Made by a program: the position numbers and the translations under genes. Of a stretch of 63,135 bases of DNA, positions 1,348 to 62,345 are shown piece after piece; the stretch's first letter is position 1, and each line of letters begins with the position of its first letter. Where the stretch lies: the NCBI GenBank assembly GCA_016199265.1, contig JACQGX010000088.1:1-63135 (forward strand). The letters are read 5' to 3'. The notes below the pieces were generated by a model. That model was not told the origin of the DNA, did not search any database, and was given only the letters and a program-made list of their open reading frames with translations. Source of the DNA: Chloroflexota bacterium (GTDB lineage Bacteria > Chloroflexota > UBA11872 > UBA12225).

Positions 1348-1528
1348 TCACCGCAGAGACGCAGAGAGGGCGCAGAGAGGGCACAGAGAGCATCATGAGT
1401 CTTGCCACAGAAAGCACAGAGTACACAGAGAGGTTTCCTGGCCATCTGAGTCCTTTCTCTGTGCTCTCTGTGTGCTCTGTGGCTAACTTCTCGGTGTTCT
1501 CTGCGTGGAGTTTGCGTCTCTGCGGTGA
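1348..1528. repeat. Hairpin repeat element, CAGAGAG flavour
   Basis: There is a perfect 15-nt terminal inverted repeat: tcaccgcagagacgc at 1348-1362 and gcgtctctgcggtga at 1514-1528. The arms are made of gcagaga/cacagag tandem units. The 67-aa track ORF at 1341..1544 is just its translation. Confidence 0.85.
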
Positions 1529-1540
1529 GGTCGGTCTTCC

Positions 1541-2290
1541 ATGATCCGATTCGCTTCGCTTGATCGGTGGGCGACGCAGGGCGCGAGCTGGCTGCACCGC
1601 GCGTCGCCCGTGGCAAAATGGGCGCTGCTCGGGTCGGCGGTGCTGCTCGCCATCCTGGCGCGTGAGCCGTGGCCGCTGCTGGCCGGATACGCGGTGCTCG
1701 TGCTCGCCGTCGCCTCGTGCCGGCTGCCGGTGGGCACACTCGTGCTCGTCTCGCTCCTGCCGGTGCCGATGTTTGGCCTGGTGGCGCTCTCGCGCTGGAA
1801 CGGCGACGTCAACGTACCGCTGACGATCGTCGCCAAGGGGACACTCACGGCGATGGCCGGCATCGTCGTCGCCGCGACGACGCCCTACCCGGATCTGCTC
1901 GCGCCGGCCACCCGCGTCTTGCCGGCGGTGGTGGCCGACAGCCTGGTGCTCACGTACCGCGCCTTGTTCCTGCTGGTGGCGCGGGTCGAGGCATTCCGGC
2001 TCGCGCTGCAAGCCCGAGGCGGAGTCTTCGGGCGCCCGGCGCCCGGCGCCCTGCCGTGGCCGGCGCGCGGCACGACGTGGCGCCGCCGCTTCGCGCTCGC
2101 CGCGACCGGCGCGGCCATGACCGTGGTGCGCGCCGTCGACGTCAGTACGCGCCTCTACGACGTGATGCGCCTGCGCGGGTACCACGGACGGCTCAGTCCG
2201 ACGCGCCCGCTCGCGCCGCGCCGGGCCGATTGGCGGCCGCTGATCTTGGCGCTCGGCTTGGTCGCGCTCGGCGTTGCCGCCCGACTCTAA
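1541..2290 (+). CDS. cbiQ: ECF transporter transmembrane (T) component CbiQ
   Basis: The protein is polytopic and carries the CbiQ-type segment LVLTYRALFLLVARVEAFRLALQARG. It lies immediately downstream of cbiM. Confidence 0.75.
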   Translation: MIRFASLDRWATQGASWLHRASPVAKWALLGSAVLLAILAREPWPLLAGYAVLVLAVASCRLPVGTLVLVSLLPVPMFGLVALSRWNGDVNVPLTIVAKGTLTAMAGIVVAATTPYPDLLAPATRVLPAVVADSLVLTYRALFLLVARVEAFRLALQARGGVFGRPAPGALPWPARGTTWRRRFALAATGAAMTVVRAVDVSTRLYDVMRLRGYHGRLSPTRPLAPRRADWRPLILALGLVALGVAARL

Positions 2291-2383
2291 ACTCGGTCCG
2301 CCGTCCCAGGTCCAAAGTCCCAGGTCGGCCGCCAGATGCCACGTTCTTTGGACATTGGACTTGCGACTTTGGACCTGGTTTAG
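2287..2383. repeat. Hairpin repeat element, GTCCAAAG flavour, bounded by CTAAAC...GTTTAG
   Basis: The left arm reads ctaaactcggtcc...caggtccaaagtcccaggtc and the right arm reads ctttggacattggacttgcgactttggacctggtttag. The cbiQ stop TAA (2288-2290) lies within the terminal CTAAAC. Confidence 0.8.
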
Positions 2384-2394
2384 GAGCGGGGTGA

Positions 2395-2829
2395 CTACGA
2401 CACGTTCGCGGCGGCGGGGTCGTCGAGGTGTGTCAGTGCGGTGCTGAGCAGCGCGCGGATACACTCGTCGGCCAGGCTGTAGTAGACGACGCGTCCTACC
2501 TTGCGGTTGCGCACGAGCCGGAGGCTGCGTAGGACGCGCAGATGCTGCGAGACGGCCGATTCGGAGATGCCGGCCAGCGCTGCCAGGTCGCAGACGCAGA
2601 GGTCGATGGCCATCAGCGCGTGCAGGATCTTGGCCCGGCTGGCGTCCCCCAACGCCCGGAAGATCTCGGCAAGCTCGACGTAGTACTCGTCCGAATGAAG
2701 CGTCCGTTCGGCGCGCTCGATCGCCTCCGGATGCACCATCCGCGTGGTGCAGCCGTCGCCGGGTACCGGCGCCCCATGGTGCTCGCCGGCCCGGCCGGTG
2801 GCGTTCGCTGGATGAATCGACGTGATCAT
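2395..2829 (-). CDS. ArsR/SmtB-family metalloregulator
   Basis: The winged-HTH region reads ELAEIFRALGDASRAKILHALMAIDLCVCDLAALAGISESAVSQHLRVLRSLRLVRNRKVGRVVYYSL. The N-tail is rich in His and Cys. A GGGAGGG sequence lies upstream of the ATG at 2829. Confidence 0.85.
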   Translation of the reverse strand: MITSIHPANATGRAGEHHGAPVPGDGCTTRMVHPEAIERAERTLHSDEYYVELAEIFRALGDASRAKILHALMAIDLCVCDLAALAGISESAVSQHLRVLRSLRLVRNRKVGRVVYYSLADECIRALLSTALTHLDDPAAANVS

Positions 2830-2841
2830 GAACCGCCCTCC

Positions 2842-2910
2842 CTAAACCAAGTGCAAGGTGCAAAGTGCAAAGTGAACAGCCCTGCGGGTTCCACCGCGGC
2901 TGTGCTTTAG
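2842..2910. repeat. Hairpin repeat element, GTGCAAAG flavour (degenerate right arm)
   Basis: The sequence is ctaaaccaagtgcaaggtgcaaagtgcaaagtgaa...gctttag, matching the consensus seen at 5574, 28864 and 62282. Confidence 0.75.
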
Positions 2911-3095
2911 TGTCGTCGTGCAGTCGCGCAAGGCTCCTGGGCCCCGCCTTCGAGCTGCCTACTATCACGATACACTTTGGCGGAAGCCGGCTGTCCGGCG
3001 CGACGCGTCGTACCGCTTTTTGGCCGCAGCGGCCGCCGTGCTATCGTGGCTTCCGGATGCGTGTTTTTCTCGCAAGCGAGCAAAGGAGGTTCACC

Positions 3096-4580: not shown

Positions 4581-4639
4581 CGGCGCGTCGCGGCTGTGCC
4601 TGATCCGGTGGGCCGGCATTGCACGCCGGCGGCGCCGGC

Positions 4640-5520: not shown

Positions 5521-5540
5521 GGCCAGAGCGTATCAGTTCT

Positions 5541-5567
5541 GGTCAATCTGGTCAATCTGATCATTGT
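5541..5567. promoter_or_regulatory. Tandem 9-mers GGTCAATCT x2 (plus a degenerate third) just upstream of the Phd-like gene start; candidate operator
   Basis: The units ggtcaatct ggtcaatct gatcattgt occupy 5541-5567, which is 21-47 nt upstream of the ATG at 5520 on the minus strand. Confidence 0.3.
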
Positions 5568-5573
5568 GGTCAG

Positions 5574-5635
5574 CTAAACCAAGTGCAAAGCGCAAAGTGA
5601 GGCTGCCTGCCGGTTACACCTTGGCTTTGGTGTAG
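5574..5635. repeat. Hairpin repeat element, GTGCAAAG flavour
   Basis: The sequence is ctaaaccaagtgcaaagcgcaaagtgaggctgcctgccggttacaccttggctttggtgtag. Confidence 0.8.
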
Positions 5636-5704
5636 ACCACCAGCAGCGGGCGCCGGGTGCGGTCGGCGAGCAGATCCAACCGCCGATTGCGCCGCCCTCG
5701 GCGG

Positions 5705-6650: not shown

Positions 6651-6749
6651 CCCACCCTCCCAAACTGGAAAAGTACTATCCAGACTAGCAAATATGGATA
6701 ACATATTGCCACCGCCCGGTCCCTGACTGTATGCCCTCTCGTCTGGTGC

Positions 6750-12993: not shown

Positions 12994-13053
12994 GGTCGTC
13001 GTCGTGCCCGTCGTGGACGTCGTGCCCGCCGGCGATCATCAAGTACGTGTCGA

Positions 13054-15030: not shown

Positions 15031-15044
15031 GGCACCTCCTCGCG

Positions 15045-20649: not shown

Positions 20650-20990
20650 GAAGCCGAATGCCACACCGGCCGTCGCCACGCAACCGCGTGGCGGTAGACC
20701 TTTGGTTGAGGGCGCACGCCTGGAGAGCGGCCGCGGTACCACCTGCGATGGGTCAGCAGGCGGGCGCTGCCCGGGTGGACGGATTTTCGCGCGGACCAGT
20801 CACAAATCTGGACAGCCGCTCGTTGATCCCGGTGATGAACACGATCTACCCGATGAATACGCCGATCCGTCTGCGCGGCATCACCACCCAGCTCGTGCGG
20901 CTCGCCACCGTAGCCATCGCCGTCTACTTGGCCCTCGTCGCCCTGTCGCCGGCGTACGCCTAGCCCACCGCTCAGCCCCGCCCCGACGCG

Positions 20991-21054
20991 GCGAGAGGGC
21001 GATGGGGCAATGGGGCAATGGGGCGCCCGTTGCTCGCCCTCTCGCCCTCTCGCC
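20991..21054. repeat. Hairpin repeat element, GGGGCAAT / GAGAGGGCGA flavour
   Basis: The left arm gcgagagggcgatggggcaatggggcaatgggg pairs with cgccctctcgccctctcgcc. Confidence 0.7.
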
Positions 21055-21093
21055 ACGTGGGGCCGGCCGGCGGCACGGTGCGTTAAACGAGAG

Positions 21094-21519
21094 GTGCTGC
21101 CTTCTCATCACGCCGGCCTTGCCGCCGCCGCGACGGTGCCGCTGGCGTGGCGCGGCTGGAATGGCCCGGCGCGGCTGGAGTTCTTTGCCGCGGCGGTGCT
21201 GATCGACGCCGACCACTACCTTTCTTACGTCTGGCGGACCGGCGACCTCTCGCTGTGGAACGCCTACTGGTGGCACCGACGGCGCACTCACGCGTCCCCG
21301 AGGCGCTGGAAGCTGCACTGGCCCCATCTGGGTTTCCAGCCGACGCGACCGCTGCACGTACCGGCGGCGCTGCTCTTGTTCCTGCTCGTCTCGTGGCGGT
21401 GGCGCCGGCTGCGACCGCTGGCGTGGGGCCTCATTTTCCACCGCGCGCTCGACGCGCTGTGGGAGGCGCTGGCGCAACCCGGCCATCTCCCTTGCCCGGA
21501 CGTGAAACGTGAAACGTGA
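21094..21519 (+). CDS. Putative membrane-bound metal-dependent hydrolase (YdjM/DUF457-like)
   Basis: The protein has an N-terminal PSHHAGLAA segment, an LIDADHYLSY motif and hydrophobic helices. The start is uncertain, and the C-terminus runs into a repeat arm. Confidence 0.4.
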   Translation: MLPSHHAGLAAAATVPLAWRGWNGPARLEFFAAAVLIDADHYLSYVWRTGDLSLWNAYWWHRRRTHASPRRWKLHWPHLGFQPTRPLHVPAALLLFLLVSWRWRRLRPLAWGLIFHRALDALWEALAQPGHLPCPDVKRET

Positions 21520-21606
21520 GCTTCCGAGCAGATCCCCATGGTAAGGGGTGCCATTTTGGTACAAGCGCCGCCTTTTGGCTCACGTTTCACGCGTCACGTT
21601 TCACGT
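21500..21606. repeat. Hairpin repeat element, CGTGAAACG flavour
   Basis: The left arm acgtgaaacgtgaaacgtgagc (21500-21521) pairs with gctcacgtttcacgcgtcacgtttcacgt (21578-21606). Both convergent flanking genes end inside the arms. Confidence 0.85.
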
Positions 21607-22704
21607 GCCGAAGCTGATCCCCACGCTGCGGGCAGCTTGCACCATTTCGCCGTTGGGGTCGACCAGCTTCGGGCGGGCGATCGCATCGGCGATGGAGACG
21701 TCGACGATGTCCCGGCCGCGGAGGGCGACCATCCGACCGTACCCGCCACGGGCGATGAGATGGACAGCCGCCGCACCGAAGCGTGTACCCAGCGTACGGT
21801 CGAATGGGCTGGGCGAGCCGCCGCGCTGGAGGTGGCCGAGCACAACCGCGCGCGTTTCGGCGCCGGTGGCCAGCGCGATGTCTTCGGCTACCTGGATACA
21901 GATGCCGCCCAGGCGCCGCGCGCCAGGCGCGCCGTGCCGTTCTTCCTGGTATACCTGCGCGCCACCTTCAGGCACGGCGCCTTCGGACACGACGACGATC
22001 GAGAACTTCCGCCCGGCGCGGGCGCGGTTGATCAGCGCCGACGCCACCGCATCGATCCGGTACGGAATCTCGGGGATAAGAATGACGTCGGCCCCACCGG
22101 CGATACCCGCCTCCAACGCGATCCAACCCGCATCGCGCCCCATCACCTCGACGACCATGACACGATTGTGGCTTTCCGCCGTCGTGTGCAGCCGGTCAAT
22201 CGCATCGGTGGCGACGTGCAGCGCCGAGTCGTAACCGAACGTCACGTCGGTCGCCGCCAGATCGTTGTCGATCGTCTTCGGCACGCCGACGAGATTGATG
22301 CCGAGCTCGAGCAGTTGCGAGGCGATACGCATGCTGCCATCGCCGCCGATGGTGACCAGCGCGTCGATCTCCAGCTCCCGTATGCGGTTGACGACCTCCG
22401 GCGATCGATCGATTGGTTCACCCGTTTCGGTCGGCATAGCGAACGGATTGCCGCGATTGCTCGTGCCAAGAATCGTGCCTCCCAAGGGCAGGATGCCGCG
22501 TACGCTTTCGGCCGTCAGCGGCCGCACGCGCGCGCCGTAACGTCCCAAGAGCCCGTCGAAGCCGCTTTCGATCCCCAGTACTTCCCAGCCGTAGACACCG
22601 ATCGCCGTCTTGACGACCGCCCGAATGACCGCGTTCAAGCCGGGACAATCGCCGCCGCCCGTCGATACGGCGATCCGCCGCACATCGCCTGTCGATGCTC
22701 CCAT
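21601..22704 (-). CDS. pfkA: 6-phosphofructokinase, ATP-type signature (Gly104-type GGDGS)
   Basis: The protein begins MGASTGDVRRIAVSTGGGDCPGLNAVIRAVV and contains TIGGDGSMRIA and GVPKTIDNDL. The ATG at 22704 follows AGGGGAGGA. Confidence 0.9.
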   Translation of the reverse strand: MGASTGDVRRIAVSTGGGDCPGLNAVIRAVVKTAIGVYGWEVLGIESGFDGLLGRYGARVRPLTAESVRGILPLGGTILGTSNRGNPFAMPTETGEPIDRSPEVVNRIRELEIDALVTIGGDGSMRIASQLLELGINLVGVPKTIDNDLAATDVTFGYDSALHVATDAIDRLHTTAESHNRVMVVEVMGRDAGWIALEAGIAGGADVILIPEIPYRIDAVASALINRARAGRKFSIVVVSEGAVPEGGAQVYQEERHGAPGARRLGGICIQVAEDIALATGAETRAVVLGHLQRGGSPSPFDRTLGTRFGAAAVHLIARGGYGRMVALRGRDIVDVSIADAIARPKLVDPNGEMVQAARSVGISFGT

Positions 22705-22738: not shown

Positions 22739-22843
22739 GGTCGAACGACGAACGACGAGCGACGAACGGCCAATGTTGTTGCTGACGAGACAGCCTTCTT
22801 CGTCGTCCGTCGTTCGGCCTTCGTCTTCGATGTTCCTTCGTCT
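22739..22843. repeat. Hairpin repeat element, CGACGAACG flavour, in the divergent pfkA/ROK promoter region
   Basis: The left arm ggtcgaacgacgaacgacgagcgacgaacggcc pairs with cttcttcgtcgtccgtcgttcggccttcgtcttcg. Confidence 0.8.
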
Positions 22844-27429: not shown

Positions 27430-27526
27430 CTAAAGCAAGTCCAAAGTCGAAAGTCCAAAGTCCAAAGCACGTCGCATCTTGTAGGCTACCTTGGACTTTG
27501 GACCTTGGGCTCTGGACTGAGTTTAC
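27430..27526. repeat. Hairpin repeat element, GTCCAAAG flavour
   Basis: The left arm ctaaagcaagtccaaagtcgaaagtccaaagtccaaagc pairs with ccttggactttggaccttgggctctggactgagtttac. Confidence 0.8.
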
Positions 27527-28486: not shown

Positions 28487-28591
28487 CAGCAGTCAGCGAT
28501 CAGCGGTCAGCGGTCAGCTATCAGTTCCCGGCCCGGCCCCACCGAGTGCTACACCTCACCGGCTGCTGACTGCTGACCGCTGATCGCTGAC
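28487..28591. repeat. Hairpin repeat element, CAGCGGT flavour
   Basis: The left arm gcagcagtcagcgatcagcggtcagcggtcagctatcag pairs with ggctgctgactgctgaccgctgatcgctgac. It starts right after the J-protein stop codon. Confidence 0.85.
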
Positions 28592-28741: not shown

Positions 28742-28867
28742 ATGATGTCGGATCCGCGCACGGTCGAGCGCCTGCTGGGCTACATGACTAAGGCAGTCTG
28801 GCTCATCATGGCCTACAGCTTTGGAACCATGATTGGCCGATTGATCCTGCTGGCCCAGGGCAACTAA
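28742..28867 (+). CDS. Possible 41-aa small membrane protein
   Basis: The ORF encodes MMSDPRTVERLLGYMTKAVWLIMAYSFGTMIGRLILLAQGN. AAGGAGA lies 11 nt upstream. The stop TAA sits in the terminus of the next repeat. This ORF is not in the supplied track because it is shorter than 60 aa. Confidence 0.25.
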   Translation: MMSDPRTVERLLGYMTKAVWLIMAYSFGTMIGRLILLAQGN

Positions 28868-28939
28868 CCCAAGTGCAAAATGCAGAGTGCAAAGTGTAAG
28901 GTGAGGGTGACTGCAGGCTGCACCTTGGCGTTGGTTTAG
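28864..28939. repeat. Hairpin repeat element, GTGCAAAG flavour
   Basis: The sequence is ctaacccaagtgcaaaatgcagagtgcaaagtgtaaggtgagggtgactgcaggctgcaccttggcgttggtttag. Confidence 0.85.
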
Positions 28940-32899: not shown

Positions 32900-34438
32900 A
32901 TGCGGAAACGGATAAAGAGCGACCCTCTTCCGGTCGAGCGAGAGCTGGGCGAGGCGTGGCGGGTCGCGCCGGCGGCGGGGACGCTTACGACGGTGGAGGG
33001 CGAAAAGGTTCGGGTGGTGTACCCGGGCCGGCCGAACGCGGCCGCCGGTCCCGATTTCTTGGATGCGGTGCTCGAGACCGGCGACGGGGAGGTGCGCGGC
33101 GCCGTCGAGCTTCACCGCCGGACGAGCGACTGGGAACGGCATGGGCATGGCGCCGATCCGCGATACAGCGGCGTCGTGCTGCACGTCGTCGGCCGGCACG
33201 ACGGCGCCGCCAGCCGGCCGCCGGGCGGCGCCCAGTTGCCGTTGCTCGAGCTCGTCGGGGGAAGCTGGACCGGCGGGGAGGACGCCGCGCCGCCGTTGCC
33301 TTGCGCCGCCAACATCACCACCGGGCGCGATCCGCTGCCTCTCCTCGAAGCGGCGGGCGATGCGCGCTTCGAGGCCGGCATCCGGCGAATCCAGGAATTA
33401 CAGAACAGTTTCGCTCGACCATCTGGCGCAGCAGGCGCTGCCGCAGCCGACTGGGACCAGTTGGCCTACGTGCTGCTGGCCGAGGCGCTGGGATACAGCC
33501 AGAATACGACGGCGCTGCACGAGCTCGCGGCCGCCGTGCCGCTCGACGAGGTGCGCCGCTGCGCCGCCGGCGCGCAGCGGCAGACGGCCGGCACGCGGGC
33601 CGAAGCGCTGCTGCTTGGTGCGGCCGGCTTACTCCCGTCTCAGCGGCACCTGCCGGCAGCCCGATGCCGTGGTGCCTACGTCGAGGCGCTCGAGCGGGCG
33701 TGGCAGGTCGCCGGCCGAGCACCGGCCTTGCGGTCATATCGCTGGGACTTCGCCCACGTGCGGCCCGAAAACGCGCCGGTGCGGCGCGTCGTTGCGCTCG
33801 CCAAACTGGCGCTGGAGTGGCCGCGAGCGGGCGTGTTCGCCGCGATTGCCGAGGTCATTGGTGCACCCGACCGGCCCAGCCAGAGCAGCGGTGGGCGCGG
33901 CGGCAGGCGAAATACGCCAGCCGAGGAACCAAGACCCCACGAGAGAGCCAAGCTGCACGACAGCCGGCGGCCCGATGCCGGTGCCCGCGTGCTGCTCGCC
34001 GCCAACCGGAACCTGGCGCGCCGCGTGACGTTGCCGTGCCCGGAAGGGTACTGGGCCGAGCACTGGGACTTCGGCGTGCCGGTCAAGCAACCGGGCACCG
34101 AAGCGACCGCGCTGATCGGTCACTCGCGGGCGGCCGACGCGGTGGTCAATGTGCTCCTCCCGCTCGCCGTCGCGATGGCCGTCTCCGGCGGCGACGCCGC
34201 GCTCCACGCCCGCGCCGTCGCCGCCTACCGCACCCACCCGCTCCTCACCGAAAATTGGATCACCCGCCTGGTGCGCGAGCGTACCGGCCTCAGCGCCGCA
34301 CGCGGTGATCGCGTCGCCGGCGCGCGCGCCCAGCAAGGCCTGATCGCCATCTACGAAGGCCCCTGCCGGGAACTGCGGTGCGGCGAGTGCCCGTTGGGAG
34401 TGCAGAGCGAAAAGTGCAAAATGAAAAATGCAAAATGA
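32900..34438 (+). CDS. DUF2851-family protein
   Basis: The sequence VVYPGRPNAAAGPDFLDAVLETGDGEVRGAVELHRRTSDWERHGHGADPRYSGVVLHVV matches the remembered DUF2851 N-terminal signature. The C-terminus runs into a repeat arm. Confidence 0.65.
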   Translation: MRKRIKSDPLPVERELGEAWRVAPAAGTLTTVEGEKVRVVYPGRPNAAAGPDFLDAVLETGDGEVRGAVELHRRTSDWERHGHGADPRYSGVVLHVVGRHDGAASRPPGGAQLPLLELVGGSWTGGEDAAPPLPCAANITTGRDPLPLLEAAGDARFEAGIRRIQELQNSFARPSGAAGAAAADWDQLAYVLLAEALGYSQNTTALHELAAAVPLDEVRRCAAGAQRQTAGTRAEALLLGAAGLLPSQRHLPAARCRGAYVEALERAWQVAGRAPALRSYRWDFAHVRPENAPVRRVVALAKLALEWPRAGVFAAIAEVIGAPDRPSQSSGGRGGRRNTPAEEPRPHERAKLHDSRRPDAGARVLLAANRNLARRVTLPCPEGYWAEHWDFGVPVKQPGTEATALIGHSRAADAVVNVLLPLAVAMAVSGGDAALHARAVAAYRTHPLLTENWITRLVRERTGLSAARGDRVAGARAQQGLIAIYEGPCRELRCGECPLGVQSEKCKMKNAK

Positions 34439-34519
34439 AAAATGCGATATTCGAAGCCAACCAGTCGTCTCATCTGGGGCGCCTCGTTCACTTTGTACTT
34501 TGCATTTTGCACTTTTCAC
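34400..34519. repeat. Hairpin repeat element, GTGCAAAA/ATGAAAA flavour
   Basis: The left arm gtgcagagcgaaaagtgcaaaatgaaaaatgcaaaatgaaaaatgc pairs with cactttgtactttgcattttgcacttttcac. The stops of both convergent genes lie inside the arms. Confidence 0.85.
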
Positions 34520-35301
34520 TGGCGCGTGGCGCCCGCCAGCGCCGGCCCTACCTGCTGCGCCAGGCGCTCGAGGTAGCGCAGCTCGGCGTCGGTGTAGGCT
34601 TTGCCTTTAGGGCGGCGGGCCAGCACGAGGAGGCCGACGAGGCGTTGGCGGTGACGCAGCGTCACCGCCACGCCTGCGCCGCGATTAGCGAGCGCCGCCA
34701 GCGGCAGCAGAGCCACCGGCACGTCGGAGAGCTCGCGCCAGCGCTCGACCGGTATCGCGCGCGGGTACAAACCAAGCAGGCGAGGCAGCACGTCGTCGAG
34801 CGGGAATTCGGGAGGCGCGCGATCGTCGAGCTGCGTCGCCGGCACATTCGCCGTGGCGTCGGCCGGCCGCTGCCGCGCCAGCGCCCAGTCACCCGCGCTG
34901 GCGGCCGGCACGAGGCGCCCGCCCCGCGGGACGAGCACGGCGGCCGCGGGGGCGTTGAGCCGGCGGAGCGACTCCTGTGCCACGGCGCTGCCGAGCTCCT
35001 CGGCGGTCGCCGGCAAGCGATGCTGAACGATGGCCGTAATGCGCTCGCGCCGTACGCGCGCAACGGCCATCACGAGGGCGACGGTACCGAGCGCCACGGC
35101 AAAGAGCAACGCGATGGTCAGCGCGACGGCGCTTCCCGGCTGCGCGACGAAGAACGCGATCAGCAAGGCACCGGCGGCGCCGAGTGAGGCGATGGTACCC
35201 CACGGCACCGTCATCGCACGCGGCGCATCCGGTTTCCCGAGTGCTCCGGGCGCATCGCCTTCGTCGGGCCGCTCGCCGATTGTCGGCGGGAGATCGCTCA
35301 T
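34516..35301 (-). CDS. Membrane-anchored GAF-like domain protein
   Basis: Two N-terminal TM helices are present. The C-terminal segment RLVGLLVLARRPKGKAYTDAELRYLERLAQQVGPAL is a typical GAF end. Confidence 0.5.
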   Translation of the reverse strand: MSDLPPTIGERPDEGDAPGALGKPDAPRAMTVPWGTIASLGAAGALLIAFFVAQPGSAVALTIALLFAVALGTVALVMAVARVRRERITAIVQHRLPATAEELGSAVAQESLRRLNAPAAAVLVPRGGRLVPAASAGDWALARQRPADATANVPATQLDDRAPPEFPLDDVLPRLLGLYPRAIPVERWRELSDVPVALLPLAALANRGAGVAVTLRHRQRLVGLLVLARRPKGKAYTDAELRYLERLAQQVGPALAGATRQ

Positions 35302-36665: not shown

Positions 36666-36717
36666 GTCAGCGGTCGGTGGTTGGGTAGCTGACCGCTGAA
36701 AGCTGACCGCTGACCGC
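36666..36717. repeat. Hairpin repeat, CAGCGGT flavour
   Basis: The sequence is gtcagcggtcggtggttgggtagctgaccgctgaaagctgaccgctgaccgc. A half-copy (gcggtcagcggtcagc) lies at about 39031-39046. Confidence 0.75.
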
Positions 36718-36730
36718 CGATGAATGGCGA

Positions 36731-39028: not shown

Positions 39029-39045
39029 GAGCGGTCAGCGGTCAG

Positions 39046-39615
39046 CTACCCCAAGACCGTGATCTTCCTGATCTTATCGCCGATCTTGATGCCGTTGACG
39101 ACGTCCATGCCGTCGGAGACCTGGCCGAAGTTGGTGTAGGTCTTGTTCAGCCATTCGGCCGGCTTGGTGCAGATGAAGAACTGCGAATCGTTGTTGATGC
39201 GGATGTCCTGGCCGCGCGCCACACCGACGGCGCCGACGACAAACGGCTTGTCGTTGAGCTCACTGGGCATCGTGCCGCCGCCGGTGCCGTTGCCGCGCGG
39301 GTCACCGCCCTGCACCACCCAGTCCTCGACGCGGTGGAAGGTCAAGCCGTTGTAGTAGCCCTGGCTCGCCTTCTGCTCGAAATTCTGCACCGTCTTGGGC
39401 GCGGCGTCGGGGAAGAGCTGGATCGTAAACGAGCCGCCCTTCTCGAGCTCGACGACGGCGCGCTTGCCTGAGCCCTTACCGTTCTGGGCGGCGCTACTCT
39501 TCGATTGACCGGGCAGTCCGGGTATGGCGCACGCCGCCGCCAGGGCCGCCAGGGCGCCCGACCCGGTGAGCGCGCCCGCGTGAATTGCTTGGAAAACGAA
39601 TGAACGCCGAAGCAT
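39046..39615 (-). CDS. Secreted cyclophilin-type peptidyl-prolyl isomerase
   Basis: A signal peptide is followed by FTIQLFPDAAPKTVQNFEQKASQGYYNGLTFHRV...GGDP.GNGTGG...SQFFI. Confidence 0.85.
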   Translation of the reverse strand: MLRRSFVFQAIHAGALTGSGALAALAAACAIPGLPGQSKSSAAQNGKGSGKRAVVELEKGGSFTIQLFPDAAPKTVQNFEQKASQGYYNGLTFHRVEDWVVQGGDPRGNGTGGGTMPSELNDKPFVVGAVGVARGQDIRINNDSQFFICTKPAEWLNKTYTNFGQVSDGMDVVNGIKIGDKIRKITVLG

Positions 39616-43114: not shown

Positions 43115-44728
43115 ATGTTCAAGCGGGTGCTCGTCGCCAATCGGGGCGAAATCGCGGTACGGATCATTCGGGCCATTCACGAGCTTGGCGCCGAAGCCGT
43201 CGCCGTCTATTCCGAGGCCGATCGCGCGGCGCTGCACGTCCGGCTGGCCGATTGCGCGTATCCGATTGGTCCCGCGCCGGCTGCGCAGAGCTATCTGAAC
43301 GTGCCGGCGATCCTGGCGGCTGCGCGCCGGGGTGGTGCCGAGGCGGTCCATCCGGGGTACGGCTTCTTGTCGGAAAACCCGGCGTTCGCGCGAGCGTGCG
43401 CCGATGCCGGGATCGTCTTCGTCGGGCCGTCGCCGGAGGCGATGGCGCTGATGGGCGACAAGGTGGAAGCGCGCCGGGCCGCCGTGGCGGCCGGTGTGCC
43501 GGTGGTGCCGGGCACGACCGAGCCGGTGCGCGACGACGCGAGCGCGGCGGCGGCCGCCACGGACATTGGCTATCCCTTGCTCATCAAGGCGGCGGCCGGA
43601 GGTGGTGGCAAAGGCATGCGCGCGGTGCGTACGCCCGAGGACCTGCGGCCGGCGCTGGCCCAGGCACGCAGCGAGGCGGTCGCGTCCTTTGGCGACGGCA
43701 GCGTCTATCTCGAGAAGCTGATCGTGCGGCCCCGCCACATCGAGGTGCAGCTCTTCGGCAACGGAAAGGGCCGAGTCGTCCACCTTGGCGAGCGCGAGTG
43801 CAGCCTGCAGCGGCGCTACCAGAAGGTCGTCGAGGAGGCCCCCGCGCCGCACCTGCCCGACGACGTGCGGCGCCGGCTCTGGGCGGCGGCCGTATCGGCT
43901 GCCGAGGCGGTGAAGTACGCCGGCGCCGGCACGATCGAGTTCCTCTTCGAGCCGTCGACGCAGCAGGTCCATTTCCTAGAGATGAACGCCCGCCTCCAGG
44001 TGGAGCATCCCGTCACCGAAGCCGTGACCGGCGTCGACCTGGTCAAAGCGCAGTTCCGCCTCGCGGCCGGCGCATCGCTCGAGGCGGCGTTGGGGAGCGC
44101 GTCCGAAGTCCAAAGTCCAAAGCATGCCCTGAGCGCAGCCGAAGGGTCCAAAGTCGGTGCCCGGCGCGATGACGACCTTGGGCTTTGGACTCCGGACGTT
44201 GGACTCCATGCTATCGAGGCGCGCATCTACGCCGAGGACCCGGACAACAACTGGTTCCCGTCGACCGGTACGCTGCGCCTCGTGCGCGAGCCGGGCGGCC
44301 CGGGCATCCGCGTCGACAGCGGGTGCGAATCCGGGCAAGAGGTCACCGTCCACTACGACCCGCTTCTGGCGAAGCTGATCGCCTGGGGGAGCACGCGGGC
44401 AGAGGCACTCGACCGCCTGCGGCGCGCGGTCGACGAATACGTCCTGACCGGCGTGCGCACGACGCTGCCGTTCCATCGCTGGCTGGTGCGAGACGAAGCG
44501 TTTCTTGGCGCCGAGCTCTCGACCGGCTTCATTGCCGAGCGCTGGCCGGCGGCGCCGTCCGGCGCGGCCGTATCCGGCGAGCGCGTGCGCGCCGCGGCGC
44601 TCGTCGCCGCTCACGCGTTTGCCGCGCGCCGGCACGCGGCCGCGCCGACGATTCAAACGGATGCGGCGGCGCCCGGCTCGACCGGTAGTGAGTGGCGCCG
44701 TGTGGCCCGTCGGGAAGCGCTGCGGTGA
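43115..44728 (+). CDS. accC: Biotin carboxylase subunit of acyl-CoA carboxylase, carrying an in-frame hairpin-repeat insertion
   Basis: The protein begins MFKRVLVANRGEIAVRIIRA and contains GYGFLSENP, KAAAGGGGKGMR, EMNARLQVEHPVTE and EARIYAEDP. Confidence 0.9.
   Translation: MFKRVLVANRGEIAVRIIRAIHELGAEAVAVYSEADRAALHVRLADCAYPIGPAPAAQSYLNVPAILAAARRGGAEAVHPGYGFLSENPAFARACADAGIVFVGPSPEAMALMGDKVEARRAAVAAGVPVVPGTTEPVRDDASAAAAATDIGYPLLIKAAAGGGGKGMRAVRTPEDLRPALAQARSEAVASFGDGSVYLEKLIVRPRHIEVQLFGNGKGRVVHLGERECSLQRRYQKVVEEAPAPHLPDDVRRRLWAAAVSAAEAVKYAGAGTIEFLFEPSTQQVHFLEMNARLQVEHPVTEAVTGVDLVKAQFRLAAGASLEAALGSASEVQSPKHALSAAEGSKVGARRDDDLGLWTPDVGLHAIEARIYAEDPDNNWFPSTGTLRLVREPGGPGIRVDSGCESGQEVTVHYDPLLAKLIAWGSTRAEALDRLRRAVDEYVLTGVRTTLPFHRWLVRDEAFLGAELSTGFIAERWPAAPSGAAVSGERVRAAALVAAHAFAARRHAAAPTIQTDAAAPGSTGSEWRRVARREALR
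44101..44205. repeat. Intragenic GTCCAAAG-flavour hairpin element inside accC (105 nt, in frame)
   Basis: The left arm gtccgaagtccaaagtccaaagc pairs with gctttggactccggacgttggac. The element is translated as SEVQSPKHALSAAEGSKVGARRDDDLGLWTPDVG between conserved AAG... and HAIEARIYAEDP. Confidence 0.85.
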
Positions 44729-48261: not shown

Positions 48262-49250
48262 ATGCCACTGGTTCCTATGAAGATCGTCCTGGACGAGGCC
48301 GAGCGCGGCGGCTACGGCGTCGGCGCGTTCAACGTCAACAACATGGAACAGATCCAGGCGATCATGCGTGCGGCGAGCGAAGTGCGGTCGCCGGTGATCA
48401 TCCAGGCGTCGCGCGGCGCGCTGCGCTACACCAACATGGTCTACCTGCGCCACCTCATGCATGCGGCCGTCGAGGACAATCGCGATATCAAGATCGTGAT
48501 GCACCTCGACCACGGCAACGACCTCGACATCGTCAAGCAGGCGATCGACCTCGGCTTCACCTCGGTGATGATCGACGGCTCGCTCGAGCCCGACGGGAAG
48601 ACACCGCGGTCGTTTGAGAGTAACGTCGAGATGACGCGCAAAGCGGTCGAGATCGCGCACCCGTACGGCGTGACCGTCGAGGGCGAGCTCGGCACGCTGG
48701 GCGGCATCGAAGAGCACGTCCAGGCCAGCCGCGTTATCTTGACCAATCCGGAAGAGGCGGTGGAGTTCGTCAAAGCCACCGGCGTCGACGCGCTCGCGGT
48801 CGCGATCGGCACCTCCCACGGCGCGTACAAGTTCAAACAGACGCCGATGCTGGCGCTCGACCGCGTCGAGAAGATCCATCGGCTCGTGCCTCACGTACGC
48901 CTGGTGATGCACGGCTCGTCGAGCGTGCCGCAGGAGCTGATCGCAGAGATCAATCGGTACGGCGGCAGCATGCCGAACGCGATGGGCGTCCCCGTCGAGC
49001 AGATCCAGGACGGCATCCGGCGCGGCATCCGCAAGATCAACGTCGACACCGACACGCGCTTGGCCGCAACGGCGACGATCCGACGCATCTTCCACGAGGA
49101 GCCGGCCGTCTTCGACCCGCGAGAGTACCTCGGTCCGGCGCGCGACGCGATCTACCGCGTGGTCAAGGCGCGTATGGAGGCGTTCGGCTCGGCCGGGCAC
49201 AACGACGACTACGCACCGACGACGCTGGAGGAGGCGAGACGCTTGTACAA

Positions 49251-49254
<4 letters not shown>
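48262..49254 (+). CDS. fba: Class II fructose-1,6-bisphosphate aldolase
   Basis: Family segments are present: GYGVGAFNVNNMEQIQAIMRAASEVRSPVIIQASRGA...HLDHG...GTSHGAYKF. The ATG at 48262 follows GAGAGGA. Confidence 0.9.
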
Positions 49255-50379
<1,125 letters not shown>

Positions 50380-60779: not shown

Positions 60780-60832
60780 CCCGAGACGCTTTCCTCGCCC
60801 GCAGGCCTGCCGGCGCGCTCGTCGCCGACGCC

Positions 60833-60965
60833 GCTGGCGTCAAGCTGCCCAGCTACGTCACCGGCGAGCAGGACCGCGCGATCATCACCGCTGAGGAGAC
60901 CAGGCGTGACCGGTTGCTCTTGGAGCGTTTCTGGCAGACTGGCGGGCGCGCGTCCGATACCGTGC
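60833..60965 (+). pseudogene. Tyrosine recombinase/integrase fragment
   Basis: The sequence KLPSYVTGEQDRAIITAEETRRDRLLLERFWQTGGRASD matches the start of the integrase catalytic domain (LPxxLTxeE...RDRallxLLxxTGlRxsE), but nothing follows it. Confidence 0.35.
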
Positions 60966-60996
60966 ACTCGACCAAGTGTCGAGGAAAGCACCGATG

Positions 60997-61233
60997 TGCG
61001 TCGCAGCAGAGATCGCCGCGTGGCAAGCAACCGCCATCCCGCTGGCTGGTGTGGAGCCGACGCTGCCAGAAGAGGATCTCAGGCCGCTGCTGGACCGTCT
61101 GGCTGGGGCCCGGTTCGTCGGGTTGGGCGAAGCCAGCCACGGCGATCATGAGTCGTGCCAATGCAAGCGCCGCCTGATCCAGACGCTGGTGCGCCGCTAC
61201 GCTCCGAGGGGACACGAACTCGTGGAGGCGTGA
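60997..61233 (+). pseudogene. Erythromycin-esterase-family N-terminal fragment
   Basis: The segment ARFVGLGEASHGDHESCQCKRRLIQTLV resembles the family motif vvgLGEatHGthEf...k.rl...Lv. It is cut off by the next gene. Confidence 0.35.
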
Positions 61234-62162
61234 TGGTGGAGTCCGAGGTGTCGTGGCGGGCGCTGCTACCTGCCGACATGCCGGCAGAGCGCGTCGCCGC
61301 CCGGTTTGGGCTGATCTCGGACACGCACCTGCCGGAGCGGTGTCCTGCGCTCCCGCCGTCGCTGGACCGGGTCTTCGGCAGCGTCGACCTGATCCTGCAC
61401 GCGGGAGATCTCGGCGAGCTCTCGGTGCTCGACCGGCTGGGCGCGCTCGCGCCGGTGGTCGCGGTGCACGGCAACGACGACACTCCCGAGGCGCAGCGCG
61501 AGCTGCCCTACCAGCAGGTCATCGCCGCCGCCGGCCAGCGGATCTTGTTGTGCCACACCCACCATCCCGATCCGGCCGACGAGGAGGCGTGGCGGCGGCG
61601 CAGCCACCCACCCGGCGCCGCCTTCGCGCGGCGGGCCGCGATGGGGCGGCGGGCGGGCGCGAGCATCGTCGCCTACGGCCACTCGCACGTGCCCGTCGTC
61701 GCCGAGGTCGAGGGGGTGTGGCTGGTCAACCCGGGCGCCATCGCCCCGGCCAACCCGGTGACGCGCATGCGCTATCAGACGGTGGCGCTGCTGTACCTGC
61801 GCGACGACGGCGCGCCGTTCGTGGTGCACGTCGACCTCGCCGCACCCGACCGGCCGTTCGCGCCAGCGTTCTGGCTGGAGCACGAGCGGCGCGGTGCTGT
61901 CAGCGCCATGGCGCCCCACTTCACCGAGTCGATCCTGGAGCCAGCTTTGATGCCCCTTTGGCTACGGGCGTGGGAGCAGGTCCGCACCATGCCGGACGAG
62001 GCGCGACGGCCGATCAACGCGCTGCTGTGCCGGCTGGCCTACCCTTGCTGGTCGGGAGAGCGCGAACACGTCACGCGCGCTGAGGTGCTCGACGCGTTCC
62101 GCACCGAGAACACACTCCCTCCCGAGACTCGCGAGTTTATCCTCCGCGCACTGACCCCGTGA
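61233..62162 (+). CDS. Metallophosphoesterase (YfcE/MJ0936-like) with a ~110-aa C-terminal extension
   Basis: Family motifs are present: GLISDTHLP, LHAGDLG, VHGNDD and GHSHVP. The ATG at 61233 follows GGAGG. Confidence 0.8.
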   Translation: MVESEVSWRALLPADMPAERVAARFGLISDTHLPERCPALPPSLDRVFGSVDLILHAGDLGELSVLDRLGALAPVVAVHGNDDTPEAQRELPYQQVIAAAGQRILLCHTHHPDPADEEAWRRRSHPPGAAFARRAAMGRRAGASIVAYGHSHVPVVAEVEGVWLVNPGAIAPANPVTRMRYQTVALLYLRDDGAPFVVHVDLAAPDRPFAPAFWLEHERRGAVSAMAPHFTESILEPALMPLWLRAWEQVRTMPDEARRPINALLCRLAYPCWSGEREHVTRAEVLDAFRTENTLPPETREFILRALTP

Positions 62163-62200
62163 CGCTGGGAGAGCGAGGCACGGTGAGGACGAGACTGCCC

Positions 62201-62252
62201 AAGGACGATGGACGAACGACGACGGCGGCGTCGTCGTTCGTCCTTCGACCTT
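62201..62252. repeat. Hairpin repeat, CGACGAACG flavour
   Basis: The stem gacgaacgacgac pairs with gtcgtcgttcgtc around a short GC-rich loop. It lies 40 nt past the phosphoesterase stop. Confidence 0.8.
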
Positions 62253-62281
62253 GGTCGAGCGCCGGCACGACGTGACCGGCG

Positions 62282-62345
62282 CTCTAGACCAAAGCCACGG
62301 TGGTACCCACAGGCGTCCTCACTTTGCACCTTGCACTTGCTTTAG
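62282..62345. repeat. Hairpin repeat element, GTGCAAAG flavour (reverse orientation)
   Basis: The sequence is ctctagaccaaagccacggtggtacccacaggcgtcctcactttgcaccttgcacttgctttagg. This is the reverse complement of the consensus seen at 2842, 5574 and 28864. Confidence 0.8.

Follow-up and report, generated by a model that had tools for sequence, protein, structure and literature searches.

In the window analysed here, a stretch of 63,135 nt from a Chloroflexota bacterium (contig JACQGX010000088.1), small, dispersed, non-coding repeats occur at least 16 times and fall into at least six sequence families. Most of them form long imperfect palindromes, the arms being arrays of a 7-nt unit in inverted orientation. 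The element class is real: its members have one architecture, a centre with short tandem units arrayed in inverted orientation on either side, and differ in sequence. On balance, these elements are probably selfish DNA akin to MITEs or REPs and prone to insertion, rather than host-designed terminators, a reading that includes slippage of the units, copying between the arms and a relationship with larger cassettes. A preliminary description had reported hairpin elements in this DNA; that observation is largely real and is partly confirmed in its details.

Inverted heptamer arrays in the window

All 16 sites first described (E01 to E16) are present, at the positions reported or a few bases away. 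The estimate of about 20 elements is reached only if a half array without inverted partner, (CAGCGGT)x2.4 at 39030..39046 between mutase and PPIase genes, and tandem runs at 5538, 36502, and 58416 are added. Tandem runs of period 7 number 15 in the window vs. 0.6 expected per Markov-2 shuffle. In an arm-pair test, a tandem run of period 7-11 counted if its reverse complement recurred at most 220 nt away with a score of at least 10 (match +1, mismatch -2). The test returned 13 rows in the window, corresponding to about 10 elements, 0.1 in shuffles and, over 1.3 Mb of bacterial loci unrelated to the window, 11 rows. Per base, the window is thus enriched over the controls roughly 20-fold by rows, or about 35-fold once the rows are grouped into elements, a grouping made by the analyst.

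The units, initially described as 6-9-mers, are mostly heptamers (13 of 16 elements), among them GTGCAAA, GTCCAAA, CAGCGGT, AGTAGGC, GACGAAC, and ACGTGAA. The 8- and 9-mers of the first description consist of a heptamer plus 1-2 bases of the following unit, and the only non-heptamer exceptions are E05 (8-mer) and E01 (9/11-mer). RNA folding was compared with shuffles for 15 elements (E02-E16), E01 being too long for shuffling and therefore only folded. Eleven of the 15 are far more stable than their shuffles (z -2.7 to -8.6). In the GTGCAAA copies at 2842, 5574, 28864, and 62282, which have CTAAAC termini, the right arm is not the reverse complement of the left; pairing is limited to about 9 bases at the ends, z ranges from -0.85 to +0.07, and this flavour does not form a hairpin. 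They are the family A elements E03 (2842..2910, +; CTAAACCAA-(GTGCAAR)3-...-TGCTTTAG, non-hairpin, z -0.85), E04 (5574..5635, +; z +0.07), E10 (28864..28939, +; z -0.27), and E16 (62284..62345, reverse orientation, -; z +0.05).

Families of dispersed repeats

Varying arm sequences had been taken as a sign that the elements are unlike copy-paste families. This is not supported, as copies of one flavour are homologous from end to end, loop included, in a single orientation. In family B, E02 (2287..2383, +; GTCCAAA/GTCCCAG units, termini CTAAAC...GTTTAG, z -5.2) aligns over its full length with the reverse complement of E08 (27430..27525, -, reverse orientation; z -5.3) with a score of 102, vs. 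31 in the other orientation. Alignments of E04, E03, and E10 with the reverse complement of E16 are likewise orientation-specific. Family A copies differ in unit number, and further ones are found on three unrelated soil-metagenome contigs, where the stop codon of the upstream ORF lies each time in CTAAAC. Because whole-length homology within a flavour is accompanied by copies on unrelated contigs, each flavour can be regarded as a dispersed repeat family. Sequence comparison argues for an ordinary homologous repeat family in the case of A and B, and more weakly in that of C.

Families A and B are flanked as C|TA...TA|G. At their left ends C precedes in 9 of 9 cases and at their right ends G follows in 6 of 7, although these bases could simply be the outermost ones of the inverted repeat. 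No clean empty/filled pair was found among near-identical strains, hence no insertion or target duplication was observed directly. A search of the genome for a RAYT/IS200-like transposase had been suggested; the window contains neither a RAYT nor any other transposase. Two GTAG-tagged REP doublets, separate from the heptamer elements, occur at 17861-17989 and 32717-32849.

The arrays are present in very many copies in the groundwater metagenomes from which the genome came. Words of (GCTGACC)n occur there at depths of 400-8000 and with many different flanks, the genome itself being at 5-11, and the bin containing (GCCTACT)n reaches 1558-9724. The same arms are found around other loops on other contigs. 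The family C hairpin E12 (36666..36720; z -6.0) has a length variant, in which contigs from runs X2 and X3 match the window save for 7 gap positions; the evidence for this variant comes from short-read unitigs of a single study, in two of its runs.

Two neighboring loci allow comparison between genomes. E13 (44101..44204, +; GTCCAAA-unit hairpin, z -2.7) lies in frame in accC (43115-44728, +), where it adds about 30 residues to a surface loop of biotin carboxylase. Outgroups and some Chloroflexota have the loop without insert. Five relatives have heptamer-arm hairpins in it, built from different units, with arms complementary within each genome; GTCCAAA, GTCCCAG, GTCCTAA, GGACGAA, and GGACGGA are the units seen at this site, and the right junction GGACTY|CAY is common to the window, L003, and L090. 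At the orthologous PCCB-accC junction, neither the window nor L004 has an insert; the junction is filled by an 11-mer-arm hairpin in L001 and by an IVP cassette (see below) in L089, and occupied in L003 by 207 nt of GC-rich hairpins.

Could the arrays have evolved where they stand, slippage duplicating 7-nt units and hairpin-templated repair copying the arms, with no movement and with units alike by convergence? The 7-nt variant of E12, the variable unit number of family A and the covariation of units at one accC site across genomes would all fit. Heptamer over-representation is moreover described as general in bacteria and attributed to slippage (PMC4692102, citing Mrazek 2007), and period 7 leads the tandem runs of unrelated control loci too (22 of 35). 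However, such an origin does not account for non-repetitive loops and termini common to the copies of a family in one orientation only, for the same families at non-orthologous sites of different genomes and metagenomes, for array depths in the community hundreds to thousands of times that of the genome, or for a PCCB-accC junction empty in some genomes and holding unrelated inserts in others. We consider it unlikely.

Placement relative to genes

Convergent gene pairs flank 4-5 of the sites and divergent pairs 3, another 5-6 are co-directional or intercistronic and 1 is intragenic: element placement is indiscriminate. The proposed close tie to gene ends is supported, and every case put forward of a stop inside a terminus or an arm (cbiQ, fba, the SirB1-like gene, pfkA, DUF2851, and GAF) was verified. 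E02 lies between the convergent cbiQ and arsR, with the cbiQ TAA (2288-2290) in its CTAAAC terminus. E06 (21496..21610; ACGTGAA-unit hairpin, z -4.4) fills the gap between a hypothetical gene and pfkA, the TGA stop of the former (21517-21519) being in the left arm and the pfkA stop (21601-21603) in the right. E11 (34399..34520; GTGCAAA/ATGAAAA-unit hairpin, z -3.7) fills that of the convergent DUF2851 (TGA 34436-34438) and GAF (34516-34518) genes, with both stops in its arms. E14 (49250..49386; AGTAGGC-unit hairpin, 4 + 8 units, z -8.6) does the same for the convergent fba and SirB1-like genes, whose stops lie in the outermost units (fba TAG 49252-49254 in the first, SirB1-like stop 49384-49386 in the last). 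The stop of the J-protein gene was also correctly said to abut an element, since E09 (28487..28591; family C, CAGCGGT-unit hairpin with 27-nt arms 96% complementary, z -7.3) begins about 1-6 nt past the DnaJ-protein TAG (28483-28485). In the frame plot, the terminus of E10, which aligns with the other family A copies, contains TAA 28865-28867, the stop of a small upstream ORF.

Elsewhere, E01 (1348..1528), a nested hairpin of 181 nt whose arms consist of CGCAGAGAGGG / CACAGAGAG units, is located within an operon between cbiM (510-1340, +) and cbiQ (1541-2290, +; Pfam CbiM/CbiQ); its MFE over 1345-1531 (187 nt) is -105.8 kcal/mol. E04, also aligned with the family A copies, lies between genes for a nucleotidyltransferase (5705-6376, -) and a PHD-like antitoxin (5047-5520, -), as identified by Pfam. 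E05 (20978..21066; hairpin with 8-mer units GGGGCAAT / CTCGCCCT, z -6.8) separates two small co-directional ORFs (frame plot), and E12 the methylmalonyl-CoA epimerase gene and meaB (both -). Divergent genes surround E03, 12 nt upstream of the arsR start, E07 (22739..22823; family E, GACGAAC-unit hairpin, z -2.7), between pfkA and a ROK kinase gene, and E08, between a GAF histidine kinase gene and a DnaJ-domain gene. Finally, E15 (62199..62254; family E, GGACGAT/GGACGAA/CGACGAC units, z -7.1), with 26-nt arms 92% complementary and a 4-nt loop, is downstream of a metallophosphoesterase gene.

That 4-5 elements exactly fill convergent gaps with both stops in the arms, that the stems are very stable and that the Xanthomonas repeats are transcribed and adjoin stop codons (PMC4692102) could indicate RNA structures selected by the host, that is, bidirectional terminators or 3'-end stabilizers kept out of cellular need. 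Yet a general terminator role is contradicted in several ways. No U-tract was found after any element of the window, even though a GC hairpin of canonical terminator type, with a T-rich stretch behind it, is present at 28978-28998. Three elements are between divergent genes, where no transcript ends, and others are in operons (cbiM-cbiQ and epimerase-meaB) or in the accC ORF, positions at which termination would do damage. In the syntenic relatives L001 and L003, the fba/SirB1 gap is without heptamer-arm hairpin. Host selection is rather improbable.

Still less probable is that each flavour is an iteron-like site for a regulator of its own that binds DNA or RNA and may be the four-helix-bundle protein, the inverted arrays acting as operators or nucleoid sites. 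One unit does recur at many loci, three window elements are in divergent promoter regions, and heptamer repeats near start codons in Nostoc were proposed to be regulatory (bioRxiv 10.1101/2022.06.06.494920). Against this, at least eight different units are present within 63 kb beside functionally unrelated genes, elements are also found inside ORFs and past stop codons, the neighboring genes include no cognate regulator, and units change freely at the orthologous accC site.

Joins of palindromic low-complexity sequence made by the metagenome assembler can be dismissed: short-read contigs often end at arrays, but Logan contigs obtained independently from other runs cover E09+E10 without gaps and E12 with the single 7-nt difference, an independent contig of run X1 holds an intact E09 copy, the reading frame is unbroken through E13, and the same families appear in contigs from other studies.

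Comparison with other bacterial repeats

Neisseria Correia elements and pneumococcal RUP are MITEs mobilized by IS630/Tc1-mariner transposases. Families A and B are like them in their length (60-100 bp), terminal inverted repeats, TA flanks (C|TA...TA|G), multiple copies, and location in gene spacers in either orientation. In contrast with these MITEs, no cognate transposase was found here and no empty site was seen; Correia and RUP, moreover, are not known to contain internal heptamer arrays that vary in number. Rickettsia palindromic elements (RPEs), reportedly described by Ogata et al. in 2000, are said to lie in frame in conserved genes, with the peptide in a tolerant loop, and form a few conserved families without tandem-unit arms. 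E13 in accC is RPE-like, whereas most other elements here are intergenic. The heptamer repeats of cyanobacteria known as STRR, reportedly described by Mazel et al. in 1990, and the TAACTGA repeats of Beggiatoaceae also have several different heptamer units in tandem and occupy many intergenic sites of one genome near gene starts or ends. Both are almost always direct arrays, whereas the inverted pair is the rule here. Among 170 sets, one inverted case was found (MacGregor 2015, PMC4679880). REP/REPIN sequences with their RAYT are likewise short, highly repeated extragenic palindromes in inverted, hairpin-forming doublets, but the heptamer elements are devoid of the GTAG/CGTC tag and of the 20-40-bp REP unit (Bertels & Rainey 2011, PMC3116915; Di Nocera et al. 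2013, PMC3733652).

Another likeness concerns Xanthomonas, where 70-75 inverted GGGAATC heptamer pairs per genome are transcribed and biased toward stop codons (PMC4692102) and where, in X. campestris and X. axonopodis, the repeats show no link with insertion sequences (Rehm et al. 2015, PMC4692102). In both systems two convergent heptamer arrays can form a stem-loop, copies number dozens per genome, most sites are intergenic with a strong stop-codon bias or even overlap of ORF ends, and length varies among relatives (PMC4692102). However, Xanthomonas has a single G-rich unit, for which G-quadruplex formation has been discussed (PMC4692102), vs. at least eight unrelated units here, most of them quadruplex-incapable. 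CTAAAC termini in two families, in-frame insertions in conserved proteins and the link to a four-helix-bundle cassette further distinguish the present elements.

A proposed mode of spread

As selfish DNA, the elements would insert at any tolerant spot, such as post-stop spacers, operon spacers, and promoter regions. Occasionally one would land in a protein surface loop, and only in-frame, stop-free units would survive there. For families A and B, C|TA...TA|G suggests a TA-duplicating, IS630/Tc1-mariner-like transposase preferring CTAG; the element terminus would then supply the stop because CTAG-type sites presumably concentrate at stop codons in a 68% G+C genome. The stem would subsequently grow, shrink and change via slippage of whole 7-nt units, as the 7-nt polymorphism and the covarying units illustrate, and the arms may stay complementary through arm-to-arm copying (intrastrand template switching). 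If transcribed, stems of 17-30 bp would be RNase III substrates or 3'-end/processing structures. Folding energies of the plus and minus strands, a weak test of RNA-level selection, show no consistent sense-strand bias and give no support for such selection.

IVP cassettes and rRNA intervening sequences

Inverted heptamer arrays bracket an S23p/IVP gene in 7 of 7 independent related Chloroflexota loci examined, and six of these use GGACGAA/GACGAAG, the unit of E07 (22739) and E15 (62201). The gene encodes a four-helix bundle of ~135 aa (TIGR02436 / PF05635, "S23p", Avd-like), for which we know of no demonstrated mobility function. All cassettes are within operons, with the left array beginning 0-7 nt past the upstream stop. 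The pattern (GACGANN)2GAC is found 30 times in the 106 kb of IVP loci, twice in the window and never in the 1.3 Mb of controls. In a genome also having the cassette, an ORF-less hairpin with a GGACGAA-type unit lies between rplJ and rplL, and the E07 loop resembles the last 18 nt of a relative's IVP ORF (16 of 18 positions, z 5.2, a short match). ORF-less hairpins appear to be a miniature form of a larger cassette with an IVP gene. No IVP gene was found within the window, and the link is limited to family E, A, B, C, D, and F having no known ORF-bearing partner.

In Coxiella burnetii, RNase III cuts the intervening sequence (IVS) at its terminal stem of 28 bp (Warrier et al. 2016, PMC4990558), and 2-3 tandem GACAGAT heptamers, in strain-variable number, lie just upstream of the S23p ORF (PMC4990558). 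IVS of 23S rRNA are regarded as selfish DNA of unknown mobility (PMC4990558). A long inverted-repeat stem with heptamers in its 5' arm before an S23p (PF05635) ORF is also the design of the seven cassettes found in relatives; by analogy, the cassette design is that of ORF-bearing 23S rRNA intervening sequences. Unlike IVS, the elements described here are located in mRNA spacers and ORFs rather than in rRNA helices, the window copies are ORF-less, and cutting by RNase III, demonstrated for IVS, is only presumed for them. Inverted heptamer pairs near stop codons have already been published for Xanthomonas. What is new is a testable link to IVP cassettes, whose identical heptamer stems may tie the window elements to rRNA intervening sequences.

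Heptamer elements of the contig

The repeat elements of the window, numbered E01 to E16 by position, are several families of small, probably selfish repeats whose stems are built and rebuilt from 7-nt units. The preliminary description had placed them in a single superfamily that would differ from copy-paste repeats; the finding itself is real, but the elements fall into homologous families. They lie on a 63-kb contig with a G+C content of 68%. The best public protein match of its biotin carboxylase (accC) is 73% identical, named relatives are designated "Chloroflexota bacterium", and sequence near-identical to the window occurs in groundwater and aquatic runs that belong to three metagenome studies.

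The gene names assigned at first sight are confirmed by Pfam, which also completes the map. The gene order starts with cbiM, cbiQ and arsR, followed by a toxin-antitoxin-like pair, two pfk genes flanking a ROK kinase gene, and genes for a GAF histidine kinase, a DnaJ-domain protein and a response regulator. Then come DUF2851, a GAF protein, meaB, methylmalonyl-CoA epimerase, mutase, PPIase and HtrA and, at the end, PCCB (carboxyltransferase), accC, BCCP, purA, fba, a SirB1-like transglutaminase-fold protein, ClpB and two ABC exporters. Neither rRNA nor tRNA was found in the window, and Rfam at gathering thresholds returned zero matches there. A 1172-aa ORF (11839-15357, +) has no Pfam match and an unconvincing third-position G+C, carries 19-nt tandem repeats at 11981-12031, and is overlapped by strong opposite-strand candidates at 13054-13704 and 13735-15252.

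Tandem Repeats Finder returned period-7 arrays at nearly all the sites first named. In our own scan, the window holds 15 period-7 runs, where a Markov-2 shuffle gives 0.6. Among tandem runs with a period of 7-11, 13 runs, representing about 10 elements, have a reverse-complement partner within 220 nt, against 0.1 in shuffles. The same paired test gave 11 rows in 1.3 Mb of unrelated bacterial DNA, made up of distant-phyla returns of an accC genome scan reused as a negative control. Per base, the window is enriched over these controls about 20-fold by rows and about 35-fold once rows are grouped into elements. Isolated hairpins with tandem-heptamer arms do occur in the control loci, at 11533-11640 of a Desulfosarcina variabilis locus (AGTGTTA), 7182-7319 of a Halopseudomonas locus (GCAAGCT) and 15752-15917 of locus L052 (AGATATG), the architecture being widespread in unrelated phyla at low density.

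The repeated unit, initially given as a 6-9-mer, is a heptamer in 13 of the 16 elements, and the supposed 8- and 9-mers each consist of one heptamer and the beginning of the following unit. A second array of the complementary unit lies close by on the other strand in 12 of the 16, the exceptions being the four copies of family A. When compared with dinucleotide shuffles, 11 of 15 elements fold much better (z from -2.7 to -8.6), and for nine of these 11 no shuffle was equally good. E01 (187 nt, at 1348), whose length is beyond the shuffle test, folds at -105.8 kcal/mol. In contrast, the GTGCAAA elements with CTAAAC termini that make up family A (at 2842, 5574, 28864, and 62282) are not hairpins (z from -0.85 to +0.07): their right half (CACCTTGGCTTTGGTTTAG) is not complementary to the (GTGCAAA)n left half.

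Families with termini and a possible insertion signature

The preliminary description had held that the flavours of the element do not behave as copy-paste families. This view does not stand, as the flavours are ordinary sequence families, with one-orientation alignments and copies in soil. In family B (GTCCAAA/GTCCCAG), E02 aligns over its full length, loop included, with the reverse complement of E08, scoring 102 vs. 31 in the other orientation. In family A, E03, E04, and E10 align one-sidedly with the reverse complement of E16, and additional copies are found on three soil-metagenome contigs. The family A terminus had no exact match in 185,579 species genomes.

Both families show the terminal inverted repeats and the small size of MITEs. 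The elements measure 60-100 bp, and base pairing between their termini, CTAAAC(C)AA...TTGGTTTAG, extends over 6-9 bp. The left end of every copy is TAAAC, or in one case TAACC, and the right end is TTTAG or a one-base variant (GTGTAG, GTCTAG, GTATAG, GTTTAC), the soil copy L086 being degenerate there. TA occurs at both ends of every copy, flanked by C on the left in 9/9 and by G on the right in 6/7 cases; seen without an empty site, this TA is indistinguishable from a part of the inverted repeat.

TA-duplicating transposases that insert into CTAG leave such flanks, as with IS630 and the Correia and RUP elements. The C|TA...TA|G flanks would fit such a transposase with a CTAG target, and families A and B may have been inserted in this way. 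Insertion at the CTAG of a TAG stop codon would change the stop into TAA, in which the target contributes TA and the element the final A. TAA stops of the predicted kind are found for cbiQ, for the small ORF ahead of E10, and in the soil contigs. Searches for an empty site or a matching transposase gave nothing; the window and the other loci retrieved contain no transposase at all, and hence no autonomous partner of families A and B. At 28978-29013, a canonical-looking terminator hairpin (GGGCGGGTCAAAGACCCGCCC, then a T-rich stretch) is followed by a lone family A right terminus, TTGGTTTAG, and this terminus provides the response-regulator gene (29011-29421, -) with its TAA stop codon.

REP elements are marked by a GTAG/CGTC tag at the end of a 20-40-bp palindrome. 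This tag is absent from the heptamer elements, where AGTAGGC has GTAG only as part of the repeat, and no RAYT (IS200/IS605-like Y1) or other transposase gene was found in the 63-kb window. The window does contain two REPIN-like doublets (17861-17989 and 32717-32849), each with a GTAG-tagged palindrome CTGTAGGGGCGTATnnnnATnCGCCC and its inverse 13 nt further; their arms of 58-60 nt are 73-83% complementary, with minimum free energies of -100.7 and -79.7 kcal/mol. These doublets are a family distinct from the heptamer elements, of a kind usually tied to a RAYT transposase.

Placement relative to genes

What was first stated about stop codons proves correct to the base: seven of them lie inside or adjoin element arms, and the elements are biased toward intergenic DNA and ORF ends. 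Four or five elements fill gaps between convergent genes, five or six lie in spacers between co-directional genes, among them spacers within operons (cbiM-cbiQ, epimerase-meaB), three are located in the promoter or 5' regions that separate divergent genes, and E13 is in frame within accC. Such a distribution is what one expects of DNA landing wherever it is tolerated. The period of 7 nt explains part of the association with stop codons: each next unit is read in a new frame, so that units bearing TAG or TGA (AGTAGGC, ACGTGAA) stop an incoming ORF within three units. The units found within ORFs (GTCCAAA, GACGAAC) are without stop triplets in either arm.

Placement at gene ends could also suggest transcription terminators. 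However, all elements lack a U-tract, no T runs being found 3' of the stems, and a scan for intrinsic terminators at 20-40 kb of the window gave fewer sites than shuffles, which makes a general terminator role unlikely. The single match inside an element (34477-34489, E11 loop and right arm) has a 5-pair stem that is not the stem of E11 itself. Moreover, the hairpin maintained within the accC ORF is not there as a terminator and argues for a process at the DNA level. Readings as G-quadruplexes or CRISPR arrays were dropped, as most units are devoid of G-runs and regularly spaced direct repeats are lacking.

Other repeats are present in or near genes. An ABC exporter gene (57548-59365, +) has an in-frame insert at 58416-58570, in the linker before the ATPase domain; the insert includes (CACAAAGG)x3 along with a pair of GC-rich hairpins, GGGGAGAGGAG...CTCTCCCTCTCCC and CCCCCTCG...CGAGGGGG. 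The other exporter gene (55368-57314, +) carries at 56190-56343 an in-frame 15-nt tandem, TCGGACACGGCCTCG, in 10.3 copies at 87% identity, encoding a five-residue peptide repeat; the match of its ATPase domain, 184 residues against a profile of 137 positions, suggests an additional insert in the domain. At 5538-5572, a direct 9-mer, TCTGGTCAA, in 3.9 copies, adjoins E04 directly upstream of a PHD-like antitoxin gene (5047-5520, -) and may be an operator of the toxin-antitoxin pair.

Apparent turnover at syntenic sites

Synteny with three relatives is excellent from meaB to the SirB1-like gene. Within this region, the PCCB-accC junction measures 7 nt in the window and 25 nt in the relative locus L004; it is a 162-nt spacer with an 11-mer-arm hairpin in L001 and 207 nt of GC-rich hairpins in L003. 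In L089, a 134-aa gene lies there between inverted heptamer arrays.

A surface loop of accC has the outgroup length in some Chloroflexota and contains an insert of variable length in others. In five genomes the insert is a hairpin with tandem-heptamer arms (minimum free energy -42 to -50 kcal/mol), and the unit differs: GTCCAAA in the window, GTCCCAG in L003, GTCCTAA in L090, GGACGAA in L088, and GGACGGA in L089. Inside each genome, both arms match each other. The right junction, GGACTY|CAY, is common to the window, L003, and L090, which points to a single ancestral insertion whose units would have changed in concert in both arms. The opposite polarity of the L088 and L089 inserts points rather to a replacement or a possible second insertion.

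In-frame inserts of variable length also occur at the same protein positions in relatives in the epimerase gene (36983-37129, -) and in meaB (35680-35856, -). Epimerase length is 175 aa in the window, 134 in L001, and 196 in L003, and the insert DNA is palindromic, not clearly heptameric. A 10-mer tandem, CACAGATGCA x2.6, lies at 36502-36527, where the longest meaB ORF is extended at its 5' end; judged by its absence from relatives, this N-terminal extension is probably a non-coding leader.

Possible slippage, copy number and viral copies

Over 36613-36900, contigs of two metagenome runs differ from the window at 7 gap positions and nowhere else. One heptamer gained or lost within this span, which holds E12, is a plausible explanation of what is a single observation in short-read unitigs, with a gap position not fixed to the base. 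No presence or absence of a whole element was seen in Logan contigs at 96% likeness, and those at 85% likeness are too noisy for strain variation to be read. In the same runs, 31-mers of (GCTGACC)n reach a depth of 400-8000, vs. 5-11 for this genome, and have many different flanks; a bin with (GCCTACT)n has a depth of 1558-9724. Other contigs show identical arms around different loops.

Among viral contigs, 42 contain (GCTGACC)3 and 16 contain (GTCCAAA)3, with varied G+C. Two phage-like IMG/VR contigs (L101 and L118, G+C about 0.61) have GCTGACC/GCTGAAA/GCTGATT arrays in most intergenic spaces, one followed by CTAAAC, so that heptamer-arm elements populate viral or proviral DNA too. Inverted arrays 415-690 nt apart in viral contigs were considered as brackets of a four-helix-bundle (IVP) gene and rejected, being successive intergenic arrays around ordinary phage genes; no IVP gene was found near the arrays of family E units (GACGAAC/GGACGAA) in viral contigs.

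Cassettes carrying a four-helix-bundle gene

The gene at the L089 junction encodes a four-helix-bundle protein (PF05635 "23S_rRNA_IVP"; TIGR02436, E 2.7e-20; PDB 2GSC from X. campestris, E 1.4e-9). A search at E up to 1e-5 gave 1843 homologues, of which many lie on very short contigs. We surveyed L089 (1631-2123) and six further independent Chloroflexota loci: L091 (9965-10504), L094 (9956-10470), L096 (9961-10448), L156 (9966-10500), L157 (9930-10540), and L158 (9762-10670). In all seven, the IVP gene is bracketed by inverted tandem-heptamer arrays and sits between co-directional operon genes. The hosts are PCCB-accC, two FAD-oxidase (glcD/glcE-like) pairs, JAB-ThiF, ABC-ABC, folD-MTHFR, and asd-aminotransferase. 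The left array begins 0-7 nt past the upstream stop and provides the ribosome-binding site of the IVP gene (7/7). Downstream of the L158 cassette are three extra modules, each a heptamer array and then a small GCGCACAAnnTGCGC palindrome.

The cassette unit is GGACGAA/GACGAAG in six of the seven loci, and it is also the unit of E07, E15, the L088 accC insert, and a hairpin of L004. The motif (GACGANN)2GAC is absent from the 1.3 Mb of controls. The window has two occurrences, one each in E07 and E15, and the cassette loci, 106 kb in all, have 30. One cassette-bearing genome has, between rplJ and rplL, an ORF-less hairpin with the same unit as its cassette, with hairpins of other units nearby. 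The E07 loop shares 16 of 18 bases with the last 18 nt of the L089 IVP gene (z 5.2); by this short match, E07 would look like an internally deleted cassette. Loops of the other elements have no similarity to IVP cassettes. A PF05635/TIGR02436 ORF was not found in the window, using tblastn and an HMM of 120 homologues, and the family E copies there are at most ORF-less derivatives of the cassette.

Relationship to published repeats

In Xanthomonas, GGGAATC heptamers form 70-75 convergent pairs per genome that could fold into stem-loops, have a strong bias for stop codons or overlap ORF ends, are transcribed, vary in length among species, and show no association with insertion sequences (Rehm et al., PMC4692102). 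The elements of the window share with them at least two tandem 7-nt units, a nearby complementary array (12/16 elements), and the stop-codon bias. This architecture being already published for one Xanthomonas unit, the novelty here is that of a variant. According to an idea of Mrazek quoted in the same work, 7 nt would be the DNA segment held by the polymerase, favouring slippage (PMC4692102).

In Coxiella, RNase III cuts the 28-bp terminal stem of the intervening sequence (IVS) of the 23S rRNA. Just upstream of its S23p ORF, this IVS has two or three tandem GACAGAT units, in strain-dependent number (Warrier et al., PMC4990558). Older hypotheses regard IVSs as remnants of transposition, or as mobile elements whose ORF serves mobility (PMC4990558). 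The cassettes share the terminal stem, the arm heptamers, and the S23p ORF, but all those seen sit between protein-coding genes and not in 23S rRNA. An inverted-repeat stem with a heptamer arm, as in IVSs, is found in E07, E15, and the seven cassettes of relatives. A search for RNA runs holding the window sequence found none.

Diversity-generating retroelements have an accessory protein, Avd, which PF05635 resembles (PMC10053308). It is conceivable, if rather unlikely, that heptamer hairpins, the cyanobacterial and Xanthomonas-type repeats, and ORF-bearing 23S rRNA IVSs form one mobile class, whose autonomous form encodes the Avd-like S23p, acting in spread or in array-making, and whose ORF-less hairpins are miniature parasites. 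By analogy with Avd, S23p might for example work with a reverse transcriptase. For the heptamer families described here, the way the elements move, the role of the four-helix-bundle protein, and cutting of the stems by RNase III are inferred. In our incomplete coverage of the literature, no paper was found tying heptamer-arm hairpins of mRNA spacers to four-helix-bundle cassettes.

Implications

The over-representation of heptamers in bacteria has been on record since 1990, as have the S23p-bearing IVSs of 23S rRNA, neither with an accepted origin or function. In this contig and its relatives, the same inverted 7-nt arrays are found both with and without a four-helix-bundle gene. It is new that one genome contains so many different units, that copies lie in frame in conserved enzymes, that two families bear a CTAG/TA signature and, most importantly, that four-helix-bundle genes are consistently bracketed by the same arrays, which links heptamer repeats to rRNA IVSs. 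Binding of the arrays by the four-helix-bundle protein, movement of the cassettes, and cutting of mRNA stems by RNase III become testable questions. In practice, the elements shift stop codons, lengthen ORF calls, add peptides to conserved enzymes, and break short-read assemblies, and the annotation of Chloroflexota genomes from metagenomes should allow for them.
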